From assembly GCA_014728085.1 (NCBI GenBank), contig WJMF01000230.1, positions 5,276 to 69,275 of the forward strand: a stretch of DNA of 64,000 bases. The letters are read 5' to 3'. The notes beneath the pieces are model-generated. The model was not told the origin of the DNA. It saw nothing but the letters and a program-made list of their open reading frames with translations, and made no database searches. Source of the DNA: Candidatus Zhuqueibacterota bacterium (GTDB taxonomy: Bacteria; Zhuqueibacterota; Zhuqueibacteria; Residuimicrobiales; Oceaniaggregativiventaceae). A program made the translations under genes and the position numbers. How positions within the stretch are numbered: the stretch's first letter is position 1; the number at the start of each line of letters is the position of its first letter. Positions 24,463 through 31,613 of the stretch are shown here, one piece after another.

Positions 24463-24683
24463 TAAATAAAACCTGTCAAACTTTGGGGCGGATAACAGGC
24501 AGCCCCGAATGCCTTTACGAATTATATTGACAACGACCGTCCTCGTTGGACACTTTATGTTCAGTTTAATCGACTGGATGCTCTGAATGGTTTCAATTTT
24601 AACAGCTATACCCTATATTTTATACAAATATAACGATTAATTCAACGTTAAAATTTCCCCGCATTGTCCGGCCTGTGACAGGG

Positions 24684-25964
24684 TCACGTTTTGGCGGCTC
24701 TGCCGATGAGATCATGATAATCTGCAGAGGTCACCTGAACATCGAGAAGCGTACCGGGAGAAAGGGGCTGGTAGAGAATTACACTATTATCGATTTCCGG
24801 TGCATCCCATTGCGTTCGCCCGGCGGAGATGCCATTTTCAGATTCATCGATGAGAACAGTAACTGTTTTGCCGATCAGCGATTCATTGAATTGGCGGTTG
24901 ATCTCTGCCTGGCGGTGCATGATTTTTTCCTGTCTTCTGATTTTTGTCTCCCGGCGCACCGAATCTGGCAGTTGATAGGCTCTGGTGTCTTCTTCATGTG
25001 AATAGGTAAAAACACCCAGCCTTTCAAATTTAAAATGGTTGATAAAGTCAAAAAGTTCCTGGAATTCTTTTTCCGTTTCGCCGGGATAGCCTGCGATCAG
25101 CGAGGTCCGCAGGGCCAGGTCGGGAATCCGCCGGCGTAATTTTTGCAAAAGTGTTGCGATCTGCTTCCGCGTCACGTTGCGACCCATTTGTTGCAAAATC
25201 CGGTTGTTGATGTGTTGGATGGGCAGGTCTATATAGTTAACGACTTTATCCAGTTCCGCGATACACTCGATCAGTTCGTCGTTCCAATGGGCCGGATGGG
25301 TATATAATAAGCGTATCCATCTGAGTTGCCCGATTCGGTTCAAGCCGGTGAGCAAGCCGGCGAGATTGGTACCGGCGCCGAGCTCATGTCCGTAAAACGT
25401 GGTATCCTGTGCCACCAGGATCAGCTCTTTGGCACCGGATTGCACCAGCTGTTCCGCCTCATCGAGGATTTCTTCGGGTAGCCGGCTGATATGATTGCCT
25501 TTAATCAGCGGAATCGCACAATAGGCGCATCGATTGCTGCAGCCCTTGGAGATTTCCAGATAGGCGTAGTGTTTCAATGTCAGTCGTTGACGGGGCTGTT
25601 GCGGGCCGGAGGGCTTTTTGATCAGGGTTAATAATTGCTGCGCTGTTATTTTGGGGTCTGTAGAGGTCAGACAGGCGTCGATTTCCGGAATTTCCCGGCA
25701 CAGGTCGTTTTGATAACGCTGTGGCAAACAGCCACTCACCCAGAGTTGATGCGAAGGGTGTTCTCGCTTCAGCCGGGCGATATTGAGGATGTAATCGATG
25801 GCTTGTTCTTTTGCAGAGTCGATAAACGCACAGGTGTTGACAAGCGTGACATCAGCGTTTTCGGGGCTGTCGCTAAATTCCACATGGGGTTTAATTATAC
25901 CGAGGATAATTTCAAGGTCGACTACATTTTTGGGACAACCCAGGTTTATAAAAGCCAGCTTCAC
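24684..25964 (-). CDS. rimO: Ribosomal protein uS12 methylthiotransferase
   Basis: LGCPKNVVD, NTCAFI, radical-SAM CSNRCAYC, YSHEE and a C-terminal TRAM domain (APEID). Confidence 0.93.
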   Translation of the reverse strand: MKLAFINLGCPKNVVDLEIILGIIKPHVEFSDSPENADVTLVNTCAFIDSAKEQAIDYILNIARLKREHPSHQLWVSGCLPQRYQNDLCREIPEIDACLTSTDPKITAQQLLTLIKKPSGPQQPRQRLTLKHYAYLEISKGCSNRCAYCAIPLIKGNHISRLPEEILDEAEQLVQSGAKELILVAQDTTFYGHELGAGTNLAGLLTGLNRIGQLRWIRLLYTHPAHWNDELIECIAELDKVVNYIDLPIQHINNRILQQMGRNVTRKQIATLLQKLRRRIPDLALRTSLIAGYPGETEKEFQELFDFINHFKFERLGVFTYSHEEDTRAYQLPDSVRRETKIRRQEKIMHRQAEINRQFNESLIGKTVTVLIDESENGISAGRTQWDAPEIDNSVILYQPLSPGTLLDVQVTSADYHDLIGRAAKT

Positions 25965-26884
25965 TGAAACAATGCCTCAACGAATTCACCCGGATCAAAG
26001 CGTTGCAGATCGTCCGGTTTTTCTCCGATACCGATATATTTAACCGGAACCTTGAGTTGTTTTTGTATCGAGAAGACGATACCGCCTTTGGCTGTGCCGT
26101 CGAGTTTGGTCAGTATGATACCGGTAACCCCGACTGCCTGCATAAAGGTGCGGGCTTGAGCCAGACCATTTTGGCCGGTATTGGCATCGATAACGAGAAG
26201 GATCTCATGCGGGGCACCTGGCATTGCTTTATCGAGTACGCGGTGTATCTTTTGCAACTCTTGCATCAAATTGGATTTTGTATGCAATCGACCGGCTGTA
26301 TCGATGATCAAGATATCTTTATGACGCGCTTTTGCGGCGTTGACGGCATCAAAAGCAACGGCTGCCGGGTCCCCTCCGGGAGAGGTTTTGATGATATCGG
26401 ACCGGACGCGTTCTCCCCAGATACTCAGCTGTTCGGTGGCGGCAGCCCTGAATGTGTCTGCTGCCGCCAACAAGACGTTATAGTTTTTTTGCTGATACCG
26501 GCCGGCGAGTTTTCCGATCGAAGTGGTTTTGCCGGTACCGTTCACGCCGATGACACTAATCACATGGGGTTTTGTATTTATAACGTTTTCAGGATCATTT
26601 GCGCTGACGGAACTGTTTAGTTCTTCGGCGAGGATAGCTTTAAACAGGTTGAAGACCTCTTCCTCATTATCGATTATGCCATCTTTATATTTTTCGCGTA
26701 ACCGTTCGATGAGATGTTCCGTGGTATCGAGCCCGACATCGGAAAGAATGAGCAGTTCTTCTATTTCATCGAGCGTATTCTCATCGATCCTGCTGGATGA
26801 TTTTAAAATACGGCCGATACCCTTGACCAGTCCGGTTCTTGTTTTTGACAATCCTTGTTGCAGTTTGGTGAATTTCTTCAGCAC
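25961..26884 (-). CDS. ftsY: Signal recognition particle receptor (NG domains only)
   Basis: GVNGTGKTT, DTFRAAA, DTAGR and TKLDGTAKGG. A GTG start at 26884 with an AAGGA RBS is preferred over TTG 26923. Confidence 0.95.
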   Translation of the reverse strand: MLKKFTKLQQGLSKTRTGLVKGIGRILKSSSRIDENTLDEIEELLILSDVGLDTTEHLIERLREKYKDGIIDNEEEVFNLFKAILAEELNSSVSANDPENVINTKPHVISVIGVNGTGKTTSIGKLAGRYQQKNYNVLLAAADTFRAAATEQLSIWGERVRSDIIKTSPGGDPAAVAFDAVNAAKARHKDILIIDTAGRLHTKSNLMQELQKIHRVLDKAMPGAPHEILLVIDANTGQNGLAQARTFMQAVGVTGIILTKLDGTAKGGIVFSIQKQLKVPVKYIGIGEKPDDLQRFDPGEFVEALFQ

Positions 26885-26897
26885 AAAACTATCCTTT

Positions 26898-27476
26898 CTA
26901 CCTTCCGGAATTGAATTTTTCAATTAAGACGCTTTTATAAATTCTAAAATAGGTTATGATGGAAAACGGAATCAGAATCGCCGAGATGATCATGACGTAG
27001 CGATTGTAGGGTTCCAGTTCGAGCATATAGAAGACGATCACCGCCAAAAAAGAAACCAGGGTGTATTTTCCCATCAGATTTGATTCTTTGACTTTCTGGA
27101 TTCGGGAGATAATATGCAGACTGGCGACAAGGATGAGAATATCTCTCGCGATGACCATAAAGACGTACCAGTAGGGAAGCCCTTTATAGGCTGCCAAAAA
27201 GAACATAATGACACCGACGGTGATTTTGTCGACAACGGGGTCGAGCATGCGGCCGAGTTCGGACCGCATTTTCAGTTTTCTGGCAAAATAGCCGTCAAAA
27301 TAGTCGGTTATGCCGGATAGGCAAAGGCATAATGTGGCCAGCAGGTCTGTTTTCATTGTATTTTTTGATATAAAATAGACGATTAAGGGCAGAAAGACCA
27401 GCCTTACGAGCGTAATCAGATTGGGTAATCCGAGGTTGTGTTTGTCTTTTTTTACCAAATCAAAAAATGCTTTCAT
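26898..27476 (-). CDS. pgsA: CDP-alcohol phosphatidyltransferase (PgsA-like)
   Basis: LPNLITLVR and DYFDGYFARKLKMRSELGRMLDPVVDK match the DG..AR...G...D...D motif. Confidence 0.8.
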   Translation of the reverse strand: MKAFFDLVKKDKHNLGLPNLITLVRLVFLPLIVYFISKNTMKTDLLATLCLCLSGITDYFDGYFARKLKMRSELGRMLDPVVDKITVGVIMFFLAAYKGLPYWYVFMVIARDILILVASLHIISRIQKVKESNLMGKYTLVSFLAVIVFYMLELEPYNRYVMIISAILIPFSIITYFRIYKSVLIEKFNSGR

Positions 27477-27485
27477 TTTTCCCCT

Positions 27486-28655
27486 TTATGTAAATAACTT
27501 GATGACATCAAGGATCAAAGATGGCTTTTTTACCAGGGCAACTTTGAAAATATTTACCAGTGTTCTTTTTTCCTCTGGTAACTTTGTCACGCCTTTCTCA
27601 ATATTTATCAGGTCTTCATCGGAGAGGTTATAGACAAATTCTTTTATTCTATAAAATTTCGCTAAATTTTTGCCCTCGGTTTTGTTGAAGGTTTCGGCAT
27701 AGTCGAGCAGGCGATTTTTGCTGACATTTTTTTCTTTTACCGCGGCAGCGGCGATTTCTCCCGCCAGTTTCCCTGCCGTCATGCCGCTGGCAATACCCCC
27801 GCCGGTAAGCGGATTGCTGTGTCTCGCGGCATCTCCGGTGAGCACGAGTCCGTCGGTCACGATATGCTTTAAGGGTTTGGAGGCGGTCACGCCCCCCAGG
27901 GAGGTGGTTAGGACAGAGGCTTGTGAAAAATGATGTTGCATAAATTCCATTAAATAGTTATAGGGAGATTTTTTACGGCAATACTCACCGGATATGCCCA
28001 GGCCGATATTGGCGATTTTATCGCCTTTGGGAAAAATCCACAAGTATCCACCCGGCGCCAGCTTGTGTGAAAAGTAAAGATGAATAGAGTCCGGATCGAT
28101 GTCAATATTCGCGGCGGTGACTTGTGCGCAGGTTTCCATGTCTTTAAGCGCGACATGTGTTTTCAGTCCGGCCCAGCGTCCCACTCTCGATTCCACCCCG
28201 TCGGCGCCGATCACGACATCCGCACGGATGGTTTTTTCTTCACCCAGATGGTTGACTTTGACTCCGGATATCCTATTCTCTTCTCTGACCAGGTCATACA
28301 CCCACGCCCGGGTGTGAACCTCTGCGCCCTGATCGGCCGCCATGCGGGCCAGATCGTAATCGAAGCGTTTGCGATGCAAGACATATCCGACCTCATCGGA
28401 TTGAATATTGAGCTGTTTGCCGCTTGGAGAATGGAAAACAACACCGGTGATCCGCCGTGCGATCCAGGCGTCCTGAACCGGTACGAGTTTTTCAATCGAT
28501 TTGGAATTGACGCCCTCTGCGCAGCGCACAGGCAGGCCGATATGGCTGTCTTTTTCCAAAAGCAGCACCGACACCCCGGCTTTGACACCCCAATAGGCCG
28601 CCATACTGCCGGCAGGTCCGGCTCCGACAACGATGATATCATATTTTGGCTTCAT
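27486..28655 (-). CDS. Geranylgeranyl reductase family FAD oxidoreductase (digeranylgeranylglycerophospholipid reductase-like)
   Basis: GAGPAGS, IGLPVRCAEG, PGGYLWIFPKG (PxxYxWxFP) and GDAARHSNPLTGGGI. True start MKPKYDIIV at 28655. Confidence 0.88.
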   Translation of the reverse strand: MKPKYDIIVVGAGPAGSMAAYWGVKAGVSVLLLEKDSHIGLPVRCAEGVNSKSIEKLVPVQDAWIARRITGVVFHSPSGKQLNIQSDEVGYVLHRKRFDYDLARMAADQGAEVHTRAWVYDLVREENRISGVKVNHLGEEKTIRADVVIGADGVESRVGRWAGLKTHVALKDMETCAQVTAANIDIDPDSIHLYFSHKLAPGGYLWIFPKGDKIANIGLGISGEYCRKKSPYNYLMEFMQHHFSQASVLTTSLGGVTASKPLKHIVTDGLVLTGDAARHSNPLTGGGIASGMTAGKLAGEIAAAAVKEKNVSKNRLLDYAETFNKTEGKNLAKFYRIKEFVYNLSDEDLINIEKGVTKLPEEKRTLVNIFKVALVKKPSLILDVIKLFT

Positions 28656-28830
28656 CTTCAGCCTCCAGGGCGTGGATGGGACATATCGCAATACATCGTT
28701 CACAGGCCGTACAGCGATCATATAGAATGTATAGAACGAATTCCCGCAGTTCGATGGCATCGGCCGGGCAAACCGCCACACAGGTGCCACAGTAATCGCA
28801 TTTGTCTGCATGATGTCGGATTGCAATCAT
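28639..28830 (-). CDS. 2x[4Fe-4S] ferredoxin
   Basis: CDYCGTCVAVCP and CTACERCIAICP; overlaps the reductase start by 17 nt. Confidence 0.9.
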   Translation of the reverse strand: MIAIRHHADKCDYCGTCVAVCPADAIELREFVLYILYDRCTACERCIAICPIHALEAEDEAKI

Positions 28831-28837
28831 ATCTGGC

Positions 28838-29788
28838 TCACTGGCATGGTTTGAGACTCGGATAATTCACCTGAAATCGTTTCTTATAATACCATTTGCA
28901 AAAAAAATAGATGAATATGATGATAAGCAAATAAAGCGGAAATCTGTAGCATATCATCAGAGACAAAAAGAGCGTTGCATATTTATTGGCTTCAAGAACG
29001 CGTTTGACGCTTTTGGTTTTCAGAGATACAACAAAAAACGGTACTGACAGTGCGGTGGGTAAAAGGACCACAATATCTTCAGCGACGGCTGCCAGTGCAA
29101 CCGCAACAACCATTAAAATCGTTCCGGCGATTAAAACGGGTTTGACACCGTGCTTGACGGCAATTGTAATTTTGCCGGCCAGGAGATCTCCCCCGACATC
29201 CGGAATTGTGGTAAAAAAATAGACTGCAAGAAAGCCGCTGATATATGGCAGAGCATGAAAGAGCAAGTTTGTATTGATTTCTCCGCTGATGTTCCATCCC
29301 ACGGTAAAAATCAATAATCCACCGACAAGATTGGCGAAAATACCGCCATACGGCCGGTTTTTCAGATGAAACGGGTTTCCGCTGTAAAGATAACCGGTGA
29401 CGAGATAAATCAAAACCATAATGGCAAAAAGATCATAACGCCCGAAAAAGAGCAATAAAATCGGACTGAGCATTAAAAGGATCATCTCCAGGTGGGCTGC
29501 TTGTTTTGGAATTGCCCCTGAAGCGATGAGATAGAGCTTGTCGTTTATTTTATCGGTTTCAACATCAAAGAGTTGATTCAAAATAAAAACGCTGCCCATC
29601 ATCAGGGTCAAAATCGCAATGACCAGTATCGGACTGATATCCCCGTGCTCCGCGGTCATACGCGCTGATTCTTTTGCCTGGGGGCCAAAGCGTTCCTGGG
29701 CCCAGAATCCTGCCAGGGAAACCGTCCACACCGGGAAAAAGAGTGTTGGTCGCAAAACAAAGAAATAATCAAGGGTTTTAAGCTTCAT
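28838..29788 (-). CDS. UbiA-family prenyltransferase (DGGGP synthase-like)
   Basis: LRP start, first Asp-rich motif NQLFDVETDKIN, YS...LK.RP, second motif IPDVGGD...TIAV, ~9 TM. Start MKLKTLDY at 29788 overlaps the purF 3' end. Confidence 0.85.
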   Translation of the reverse strand: MKLKTLDYFFVLRPTLFFPVWTVSLAGFWAQERFGPQAKESARMTAEHGDISPILVIAILTLMMGSVFILNQLFDVETDKINDKLYLIASGAIPKQAAHLEMILLMLSPILLLFFGRYDLFAIMVLIYLVTGYLYSGNPFHLKNRPYGGIFANLVGGLLIFTVGWNISGEINTNLLFHALPYISGFLAVYFFTTIPDVGGDLLAGKITIAVKHGVKPVLIAGTILMVVAVALAAVAEDIVVLLPTALSVPFFVVSLKTKSVKRVLEANKYATLFLSLMICYRFPLYLLIIIFIYFFCKWYYKKRFQVNYPSLKPCQ

Positions 29789-31193
29789 TTTGCTCGTGTT
29801 GGTATTTACCGATTTTATCTTCAATGGGAATGGGATATGTACCTGTAAAACAGGCTGTACAGAAACCACACCCATGTGGTTTAACGGATTCTAACAGACC
29901 TTCGTGCGACAAATAGTGCAGGGAATCGCAATCGAGATAGGTTTTAATATTTTCGATCGATTTATTGTTGGCAATGAGTTCTGCTTTGCTGGGAAAGTCC
30001 ATTCCATAGAAACAGGGAGAAACGATCGGTGGTGAACTTACCCGAACATGTACTTCTTTGGCGCCATTTTCGCGGATATGCTTAACCAGCTGTTTCAGGG
30101 TTGTACCCCGCACAATCGAATCCTCTACAACCACGACTCTGCGGCCGTCGAGGATTCCTTTCACGGCATTGAATTTGACTCTGACGCCGAAATCTCTCAT
30201 GTTTTGAGATGGATGTATAAATGTCCGGCCCACATAGTGATTTCTAATCAGCCCCAGCTCGAATTTTAGATTGGAACGCCTGGAATAGCCCAATGCTGCG
30301 GTATTGCTGGAATCGGGCACGGAAATGACAATATCGGCCGCCACATCTGATTCCAGAGCCAGAATTTTACCCAATTTTCGCCGCACCCGGTCAACATTAT
30401 CATTAAATATACGGCTATCCGGTCGGGCGAAATAGATGAGTTCAAAAATACACGAATAGCAGGGTTGTTGAGTCTGAAAGGGAAAGGCGGTGATCCCATT
30501 TTCATCGATTTTTATCAATTCACCCGGTTGAATTTCACGCACCAATTCCGCTTTCAACAGATCAAGGGCACAGGTTTCGGAGACGACGCAATAGGTGTTC
30601 TGTCGCTTGCCGATGCACAGGGGGCGCACACCATGCGGATCTCTGGCAGCATAAATGCCATCCCGTGTCAGCATCACCAGTGAATAGGCTCCGGTAATTT
30701 GCTTCAGGGCCTCGATGATGCGTTTAGAAATGGTCTCTTTATTTGAACACGCAATCAGATGGGGGATGATTTCCGTATCTGTGGTGGTTTGGAACAGGGA
30801 GCCGGTTTTTTCGAGTTGTTTACGAATGATACCGCTGTTGGTAAAATTACCGTTATGGGCGATGGCAAAAGGCCCCATCATATAGTTGTTGAAGGTCAGG
30901 GGTTGGGCATTGAGGGCCTGAGTGGATCCGGTGGTTGAGTAGCGATTGTGTCCTATAGCCCAGGTGCCTTTGAGTTGTTTAAATCTTTCCTGATCCGAGA
31001 ATACATCCGCAACCAGGCCTTGTCCGGTTTGTTTATGTAATTTACCGTCATAGCTGACGATACCGGCGCTTTCCTGGCCCCGGTGTTGCAGCGCATAGAG
31101 TGCCAGATAGGCCAAATGAGCGGCATCGGGTGTTCCGTAGATTGCGGTGACACCGCAATTGGATTTGGGTTTGTCAATTTTTTTCTTAGCCAT
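29778..31193 (-). CDS. purF: Amidophosphoribosyltransferase
   Basis: Propeptide then CG, LQHRGQESAG, GHNRYST, HNGN and VVEDSIVRGTT. Confidence 0.97.
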   Translation of the reverse strand: MAKKKIDKPKSNCGVTAIYGTPDAAHLAYLALYALQHRGQESAGIVSYDGKLHKQTGQGLVADVFSDQERFKQLKGTWAIGHNRYSTTGSTQALNAQPLTFNNYMMGPFAIAHNGNFTNSGIIRKQLEKTGSLFQTTTDTEIIPHLIACSNKETISKRIIEALKQITGAYSLVMLTRDGIYAARDPHGVRPLCIGKRQNTYCVVSETCALDLLKAELVREIQPGELIKIDENGITAFPFQTQQPCYSCIFELIYFARPDSRIFNDNVDRVRRKLGKILALESDVAADIVISVPDSSNTAALGYSRRSNLKFELGLIRNHYVGRTFIHPSQNMRDFGVRVKFNAVKGILDGRRVVVVEDSIVRGTTLKQLVKHIRENGAKEVHVRVSSPPIVSPCFYGMDFPSKAELIANNKSIENIKTYLDCDSLHYLSHEGLLESVKPHGCGFCTACFTGTYPIPIEDKIGKYQHEQNEA

Positions 31194-31217
31194 TGAGGAT
31201 ATCAGTTATCCTTCATT

Positions 31218-31613
31218 TTATGATGTTCCGGCCATGAGTAAAAGATACCCTAAAAATATGCCGGCAATGTCGGCAACAATATCTTTTAAACTGAATATAC
31301 CTTTTTCGCTGATCTTATCATATGCTTCTTTCGACAGGCCAAGGGTGAGGGAAAAGCTTGCGGCCAGATTTGCAGAGGCTGAAACCGACTTGTTTGTGAG
31401 CTTTCTCGCTCCATAATACCCCAGGCCGGCAAAAAAAGCACTCATGATCAGGTGGTCTGCCTTGTCTTTGGCGAGCCATGGATCTGTTTGTTTTGTGTGT
31501 TGAAGAGACAGCGTTATAGAATCTTTCTGCGCGGCAATGATGTTTGATTTTATTTCGTCAGCACCGGCTGCAGAACTCAGGAAAAGAGCCACAACACACC
31601 ATTGCTTAATCAT
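31218..31613 (-). CDS. YfiM/DUF2279-like membrane or lipoprotein-associated protein
   Basis: DPWLAKDKADH...GLSKEAYD...FSLKDIVAD. Start at 31613, directly after the upstream stop. Confidence 0.7.
   Translation of the reverse strand: MIKQWCVVALFLSSAAGADEIKSNIIAAQKDSITLSLQHTKQTDPWLAKDKADHLIMSAFFAGLGYYGARKLTNKSVSASANLAASFSLTLGLSKEAYDKISEKGIFSLKDIVADIAGIFLGYLLLMAGTS

Follow-up and report, generated by a model that had tools for sequence, protein, structure and literature searches.

Does a geranylgeranyl reductase (GGR) encoded in a bacterium draw its electrons from the small ferredoxin whose gene overlaps its own? The question is raised by a locus in a Candidatus Zhuqueibacterota (KSB1) bacterium (assembly GCA_014728085.1), which we analysed within a 64,000-nucleotide (nt) window of contig WJMF01000230.1 (positions 5,276 to 69,275 of the forward strand); locus coordinates below are those of the window. 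An earlier reading of this DNA, hereafter the original prediction, had described the two genes as an archaeal-style pairing and proposed that the reductase depends on the ferredoxin rather than on NAD(P)H. We found that the pairing is more than chance, because it is kept in 59 of 59 genomes of the phylum and is confined to one clade of GGRs. By analogy with studied archaeal pairs, we read the ferredoxin as the dedicated reductant and docking donor of the GGR, the two proteins together forming a two-component isoprenoid-chain reductase, and give this reading a probability of about 0.8; the direction of electron flow, the dependence on ferredoxin and the substrate are the parts that we infer. 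The pair is laid out as follows:

28639–28830, minus strand: ferredoxin gene, from the ATG at 28830 to the TGA at 28641–28639, 63 amino acids (aa)
27486–28655, minus strand: GGR gene, from the ATG at 28655 to the stop at 27486, 389 aa
28639–28655, minus strand: 17-nt overlap of the ferredoxin stop and the GGR start, translational coupling

The overlap is the one that the original prediction had reported. A Shine–Dalgarno sequence (GGAGG) lies 6 nt 5' of the GGR start at 28655, from which the protein begins MKPKYDIIVVGAGPAG. A longer open reading frame of 446 aa (27486–28826, starting at a TTG at 28826) was considered as the GGR gene and rejected as an artefact: its frame stays open across the whole ferredoxin gene, which is read in another frame. 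Among 67 ferredoxin–GGR pairs of relatives, the junction overlaps by 4 nt in 23, 8 nt in 9, 11 nt in 10, 17 nt in 10 and 25 nt in 4. No tRNA or Rfam match was found within the window, and promoter and terminator scans of 24500–31500 stayed at chance level, with no convincing terminator inside the operon.

We assigned the reductase using Pfam and NCBIfam profile searches with curated cut-offs, together with an alignment of 65 GGR orthologs (A3). It falls in the geranylgeranyl reductase family by TIGR02032 (GG-red-SF, 240.6 bits against a cut-off of 158.8), carries the GGR_cat domain (PF22578, 93.7 bits against a cut-off of 27) and also matched FAD_binding_3. Its best named matches are archaeal digeranylgeranylglycerophospholipid (DGGGPL) reductase models, with scores below all three equivalog cut-offs (NF041160, 263 against 780 bits; NF041080, 191 against 580; NF041385, 93 against 700); we therefore treat DGGGPL reductase as its best-matching named function and do not assign it as an archaeal equivalog. 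The nearest solved structure is the Thermoplasma acidophilum DGGGPL reductase 3OZ2 (E = 2.6e-69; profile E = 6e-117), and the alignment spans residues 4–369 of 389, including VRC(A/G)EG and PxGYxWxFPKG.

Both reductase motifs named in the original prediction, IGLPVRCAEG and PGGYLWIFPKG (PxxYxWxFP), are present, as are a GxGxxG FAD fold (VVGAGPAGS) and a flavin motif (LTGDAAR). Invariant in A3 are G11, G13, G16, C45, G203, Y204, W206, F208, G274, D275 and A276, and P201 and P209 of the PGGYxWxFP motif are nearly so. The catalytic cysteine, within PVRC45AEG, is invariant in alignments A1 and A3, corresponds to Cys47 of the Sulfolobus acidocaldarius GGR and aligned with its counterparts in 3OZ2 and 3ATQ. 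Based on these features, the protein is predicted to be an FAD-dependent member of an archaeal DGGGPL-reductase-like clade that hydrogenates geranylgeranyl-type double bonds.

The 63-aa ferredoxin contains two CxxCxxCxxxCP motifs (C11/14/17/21 and C40/43/46/50) and matched Fer4 over two stretches (55 bits), which places it with the clostridial-type 2x[4Fe-4S] ferredoxins. Across 66 ferredoxin orthologs (alignment A2), no change is seen in the eight cluster cysteines, G15 or P51. Its identity is 55% with the counterpart encoded upstream of the Ca. Methanolliviera GGR and 54% with that of a Methanocellales archaeon.

Occurrence of the pair in bacteria and archaea

We examined conservation in a sample of 151 genomes from the phylum, whose presence tallies count two unpublished genomes (G115 and G149) that contribute no loci. 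A GGR ortholog was present in 145 of the 151. At every one of 59 loci, from 59 genomes and about 25 families, the GGR is immediately preceded, on the same strand, by a gene for a ferredoxin homolog, and the pairing is still kept where GGR identity drops to 41%. Distant GGR paralogs from the same phylum were mostly without a ferredoxin (9 of 10).

Sampling 80 GGR-family loci independently across GTDB species gave a sharp division. Where the GGR was at least 36% identical to ours, a ferredoxin was linked in 10 of 12 loci (nine adjacent, one fused), compared to none of 68 loci with an adjacent or fused ferredoxin where identity was 33% or less (Fisher p = 4e-11, relatedness ignored). The loci with a linked ferredoxin include archaea (Ca. 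Methanolliviera, a Methanobacteriota metagenome-assembled genome (MAG), Methanocellales and Ca. Methanogranum) and bacteria (Poribacteria, Aggregatilineales, Anaerolineae, where the genes are fused, and MAGs labelled Ignavibacteria, Bacteroidetes and Cytophagia). The upstream ferredoxin was found at the named archaeal loci L100, L101, L104 and L117.

In a maximum-likelihood tree of 77 GGR rows, all ferredoxin-linked sequences (33 adjacent and seven fused) fell into a single clade of 43 rows (SH-aLRT 92), and the other 34 rows showed no linkage. The clade mixes archaea (Methanobacteriota and Thermoplasmatota) with bacteria; the tree is unrooted, and we therefore make no claim on the direction of transfer between domains. 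The original prediction had staked its reading on conservation of the ferredoxin beside GGR homologs, and the ferredoxin was conserved at each of these levels: within the phylum, in the independent sample and across the clade. The archaeal style that it had attributed to the pairing is likewise borne out, by the clade shared with archaea and by the 54–55% identity of the ferredoxin to its archaeal counterparts. Linkage to a ferredoxin, by adjacency or by fusion, marks this clade and gives a simple genomic rule for annotating GGR paralogs.

Using a search of 1.84 billion representatives, we identified natural fusions of the two proteins in seven representative clusters (P0159, P0203, P0211, P0219, P0221, P0241 and P0265; 444–476 aa), each with an N-terminal 2x[4Fe-4S] domain joined to a GGR; L106, from an Anaerolineae MAG, is a further case. 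The domains follow the order of the gene pair, with 26–43 residues between the last cluster cysteine and GxGxxG. One fusion (L084) has an archaeal context, with genes for prefoldin, Pcc1, L37ae and exosome subunits, and another (L085) a bacterial one, with outer-membrane and FtsX genes, and adjoins UbiA and PcrB/GGGPS (geranylgeranylglyceryl phosphate synthase) genes. The fusions are scattered over several places in the tree, which suggests that fusion happened repeatedly.

A few loci depart from the arrangement. In an Ignavibacteriaceae MAG (L098), a GGR 50% identical to ours has its homologous ferredoxin 2.7 kb upstream, a rare break of the pairing, and one clade member (L102) has no ferredoxin nearby. 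Family f9 and part of family f10 of the phylum (for example, L087–L091) are without a ferredoxin-linked GGR and keep GGGPS. Their GGR paralog, which has no ferredoxin, groups with Rhodothermales/Bacteroidota and Micrarchaeota sequences and may have replaced the ferredoxin-dependent enzyme.

Predicted docking and proposed electron supply

Using A3 for the GGR and A2 for the ferredoxin, we co-folded the two proteins with FAD and two 4Fe-4S clusters in three runs, alongside three controls. The GGR–ferredoxin ipSAE was 0.95 in all three runs compared to 0.12 for the best control, the runs agreed in at least 98% of contacts, and partner pLDDT was 88–89. In the predicted interface, the cluster-binding loops of the ferredoxin (residues 12–22 and 45–53) would face GGR residues 35–37, 42, 44, 154–157, 175–177 and 251–257, beside Cys45.

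These observations fit a path in which low-potential electrons, with pyruvate:ferredoxin oxidoreductase (PFOR) or Rnf as their putative source, would pass to the ferredoxin, cross its two clusters and reach the GGR flavin. The reduced flavin and the conserved Cys45 would then hydrogenate C=C bonds of a geranylgeranyl-type chain, and translational coupling of the two genes would hold the proteins in step. Genes for electron supply are present in the same genome, namely a NifJ-type PFOR (1879 bits) and RnfC (577 bits). The ferredoxin use put forward in the original prediction draws support from the conservation, the fusions, the predicted complex and archaeal precedent; its exclusion of NAD(P)H is a supposition. 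Its description of the system as anaerobic is upheld loosely, by the presence of PFOR and Rnf and by the facultatively anaerobic character of the phylum (PMC11683472).

A structural relative of the GGR bears both on the predicted complex and on the identity of the pair. FixC (7koe_C) matched the GGR profile as a distant solved analogue (E = 3.6e-25, 92 bits), and FixC works with a small ferredoxin-like protein, FixX. The two genes might accordingly be read as a FixC/FixX-like electron-transfer flavoprotein:quinone oxidoreductase module with no prenyl reductase. The homology, which extends to an NCBIfam FixC match of 58 bits, favours this identity; that score lies far under the cut-off of 610, the protein has the catalytic domain specific to GGRs along with Cys45 and PxxYxWxFP, the operon has no etfAB/fixAB genes, and FixX gave no match to the ferredoxin profile at E <= 1e-7. 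Based on the unreached FixC cut-off, the GGR motifs and the FixX mismatch, we rejected the FixC/FixX identity and regard it as very improbable.

Several points weigh against a dedicated ferredoxin donor. Because the 59 phylum loci share ancestry, they are not independent. The ipSAE expresses model confidence, and the calibration behind it (58 of 80 solved complexes and two of 110 mismatched pairs at that mark) differs from our runs in alignments and ligands. Entry 7KOE holds FixC and, we presume, FixX as well, so the model may owe part of the score to a solved structure, against which stands the FixX mismatch noted above. The T. acidophilum GGR, the nearest solved homolog, reportedly draws on NAD(P)H in vitro (PMC10821996), and the S. 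acidocaldarius GGR was active in Escherichia coli without a partner ferredoxin (PMC10821996, PMC4244643); ferredoxin therefore need not be obligatory.

Those two enzymes, together with the clade members L102 and L098 described above, are also what speaks for a self-sufficient, NAD(P)H-dependent GGR; the ferredoxin would then only share the transcript and work with another enzyme, or act in regulation or oxygen sensing. We consider this improbable given adjacency in 59 of 59 phylum genomes and across domains, fusions in the same order, a trait confined to one clade and a confident predicted interface beside the flavin-site Cys45. The T. acidophilum GGR locus itself also has a 4Fe-4S gene (PMC10821996).

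Neighbouring genes and the candidate substrate

If the ferredoxin is the donor, the next question is which chain the pair would reduce. On the minus strand, the gene order is purF, a divergent UbiA, ferredoxin, GGR, a PgsA-like transferase, ftsY and rimO. Two of these genes flank the pair directly:

28838–29875, minus strand: divergent UbiA prenyltransferase (PF01040, 84.8 bits), ending 7 nt before the ferredoxin start
26898–27476, minus strand: PgsA-like CDP-alcohol phosphatidyltransferase (PF01066, 117 bits), starting 9 nt after the GGR stop

This neighbourhood is common among the 59 phylum loci, with UbiA upstream of the ferredoxin in 53 and a CDP-alcohol transferase downstream of the GGR in about 43. 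The operon UbiA keeps its Asp-rich motifs (NxxxDxxxD and DxxxD) and reached no NCBIfam equivalog (best score 47.5 bits); ChlG and homogentisate phytyltransferase, at 41 bits each, are among its best, if weak, matches. Of the other UbiA paralogs encoded in the genome, it comes closest to a MenA-like one, at 24% identity, and it represents a separate, uncharacterised clade. The longest UbiA open reading frame shares 98 nt with the end of purF (29778–29875), and the true start is probably a downstream methionine, because relatives align only from about residue 20–32.

The PgsA-like transferase scored 100.1 bits on TIGR00560 (pgsA), just under the cut-off of 109.1, and is one of five CDP-alcohol phosphatidyltransferase family members in the genome (5.19 Mb in 244 contigs, estimated completeness 97.9%). 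A second PgsA-like transferase gene (C21:4855–5358) lies just upstream of the NifJ-type PFOR gene (C21:6515–10039).

With regard to substrate, we see about an even chance that the pair acts on an ether-linked isoprenoid glycerolipid made by GGGPS and UbiA enzymes. This substrate is favoured because the genome encodes a GGGPS (TIGR01769, 227 bits, above cut-off) and a DGGGPS-like UbiA (217–222 bits, below equivalog cut-offs), and because all of these genes are clustered in a Poribacteria genome. The cluster (L103) occupies about 5 kb on a Ca. Poribacteria chromosome (OZ242351.1):

L103, 884–6004, one strand: operon-type UbiA (355 aa), DGGGPS-like UbiA (287 aa), SpoU methylase, ferredoxin, GGR and GGGPS/PcrB

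Together with the bacterial fusion locus L085, this neighbourhood ties the ferredoxin–GGR pair to GGGPS/UbiA ether-lipid genes. The Poribacteria cluster also links the uncharacterised UbiA clade of our operon to such genes.

Other observations weigh against an ether lipid. CarS (PF01864) was not found in the genome, nor was a clear G1PDH, with Fe-ADH_2 matches weak at 42 bits or less, and the operon UbiA is not the DGGGPS-like one. GGGPS occurs in 143 of the 151 phylum genomes, also in families f9 and f10, where this GGR is missing, and profiling it against the ferredoxin-linked GGR did not discriminate; in the source genome, GGGPS and the DGGGPS-like UbiA sit among housekeeping genes, an uninformative context. 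In Cloacimonadota (L086), the genes that come after the pair are instead those of an unknown 199-aa protein and of a GT2 glycosyltransferase.

The same facts favour a genuine pair with another substrate, which may be a polyprenol or polyprenyl phosphate (dolichol-like), the side chain of menaquinone (MenJ-like) or geranylgeranyl diphosphate destined for what the divergent UbiA makes. The presence of MenA, and of ChlG and homogentisate phytyltransferase among the weak best matches of the adjacent UbiA, points the same way. The GGR scored 76 bits on MenJ against a cut-off of 700, compared to 191–263 bits on DGGGPL-reductase models, and the PgsA-like head-group transferase directly downstream, like the clustering with GGGPS and UbiA genes in Poribacteria and at the bacterial fusion locus, argues for a lipid. 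Nonetheless, given GGGPS in families without this GGR and the Cloacimonadota glycosyltransferase, a polyprenol or quinone substrate is a live rival, which we rate as possible and somewhat short of even. The original prediction had allowed for either lipid or quinone; the evidence leans towards an ether-linked isoprenoid lipid and leaves the choice unsettled.

The broadest reading combines these parts: the pair would be an obligate two-subunit reductase, in places fused and belonging to one cross-domain clade, that carries out the saturating step of a phylum-wide pathway to archaeal-type ether phospholipids made up of GGGPS, two UbiA prenyltransferases and a PgsA-like head-group enzyme. We offer this joint claim tentatively and regard it as doubtful. 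If it is true, membranes throughout a bacterial phylum would contain mixed or archaeal-like lipids whose reduction draws on electrons at the ferredoxin level.

The Poribacteria GGR gene (L103:3986–5179) has an in-frame TGA at the position of the catalytic cysteine (GAPVR-U-AEG compared to GLPVRCAEG), making it a candidate selenocysteine-containing GGR, with a sequencing error or a pseudogene as alternatives. The same genome encodes SelB (367 bits, above cut-off), and a candidate selenocysteine insertion sequence (SECIS) hairpin about 14 nt after the TGA folded no better than shuffled sequences (z = -0.49).

Comparison with known systems

FixC/FixX (EtfC/EtfX) offers a structural analogy for the docking of a ferredoxin onto a GGR-related flavoprotein, since FixC receives its electrons from a small 2x[4Fe-4S] protein bound to it. 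Unlike GGR, to which it is only distantly homologous (92 bits), FixC reduces quinone, works with EtfAB and is without the GGR catalytic motifs.

Closer systems are found in archaea, the work on the Methanosarcina acetivorans pair being reportedly that of Isobe et al. 2014, J Bacteriol 196:417. In E. coli, the M. acetivorans GGR saturated digeranylgeranylglyceryl phosphate (DGGGP) only when co-expressed with the upstream ferredoxin gene (PMC4244643, PMC10821996), in keeping with the background on which the original prediction had drawn. As in that archaeon, a small ferredoxin gene immediately precedes the KSB1 GGR gene; the two GGRs belong to one family, and the KSB1 enzyme groups with ferredoxin-linked GGRs of Methanobacteriota in the tree. 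The M. acetivorans ferredoxin is the specific in vivo reductant, a role that we propose by analogy for the KSB1 protein. The host differs, being a bacterium (KSB1, within the Fibrobacteres–Chlorobi–Bacteroidetes (FCB) group), as does the setting: a divergent UbiA and a PgsA-like gene flank the pair, with purF, ftsY and rimO around them. Orthology to the archaeal pair rests on the named relatives (Methanocellales and Methanolliviera) and on the shared clade.

In Thermococcus kodakarensis, Fd-2 (TK1087) is encoded immediately upstream of the GGR (TK1088), is co-transcribed and co-purifies with it, is essential and has been proposed as its sole electron provider (PMC6401487). The KSB1 ferredoxin gene has the same position and is probably co-transcribed with its GGR gene. 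In this hyperthermophilic archaeon the reductants of Fd-2 are OGOR, FDH and IOR (PMC6401487), compared to PFOR and Rnf as the putative sources in KSB1. The T. acidophilum reductase 3OZ2 has VRC(A/G)EG and PxGYxWxFPKG in common with the KSB1 GGR. Differences are its reported use of NAD(P)H in vitro and the score of the KSB1 protein on the Thermoplasmatales equivalog, 263 bits against a cut-off of 780. According to a 2024 review, archaeal GGRs with ferredoxin genes in their locus cluster structurally (PMC10821996).

Among bacteria, Ca. Cloacimonetes (FCB) carry GGGPS, DGGGPS and a GGR described as close to euryarchaeal ones (Villanueva et al. 2021, PMC7852524). We found that a Cloacimonadota GGR (L086), 43% identical to ours, is overlapped by 4 nt by the gene for a 59-aa ferredoxin. 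This partner is undiscussed in that study, where a term search found 'ferredoxin' only in the reference list (PMC7852524), and the KSB1/Zhuqueibacterota genome papers make no mention of the genes described here. Work on the lipid divide has shown GGGPS, DGGGPS and GGR genes in FCB bacteria and left the source of reducing power unaddressed. The partner ferredoxin travels with the GGR in KSB1, Cloacimonadota, Poribacteria, Chloroflexota and MAGs labelled Ignavibacteria; together with the single shared clade and the fusions, this gives the bacterial pathway the look of a complete, working one and not of a relic. A suitable reductant is known to be missing when saturated archaeal lipids or reduced terpenoids are engineered in E. 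coli, an obstacle that compact bacterial pairs or single-chain fusions could help to overcome.

The partnership of ferredoxin and GGR is already established in archaea, and the KSB1 pair, judged by homology, is a bacterial member of that system. Compared with the Cloacimonetes study, the pairing is documented here throughout a phylum, with fusions in addition. What this analysis adds is that the pairing extends through the phylum, is restricted to one clade, spans both domains and, as the scattered fusions suggest, has been fused more than once.

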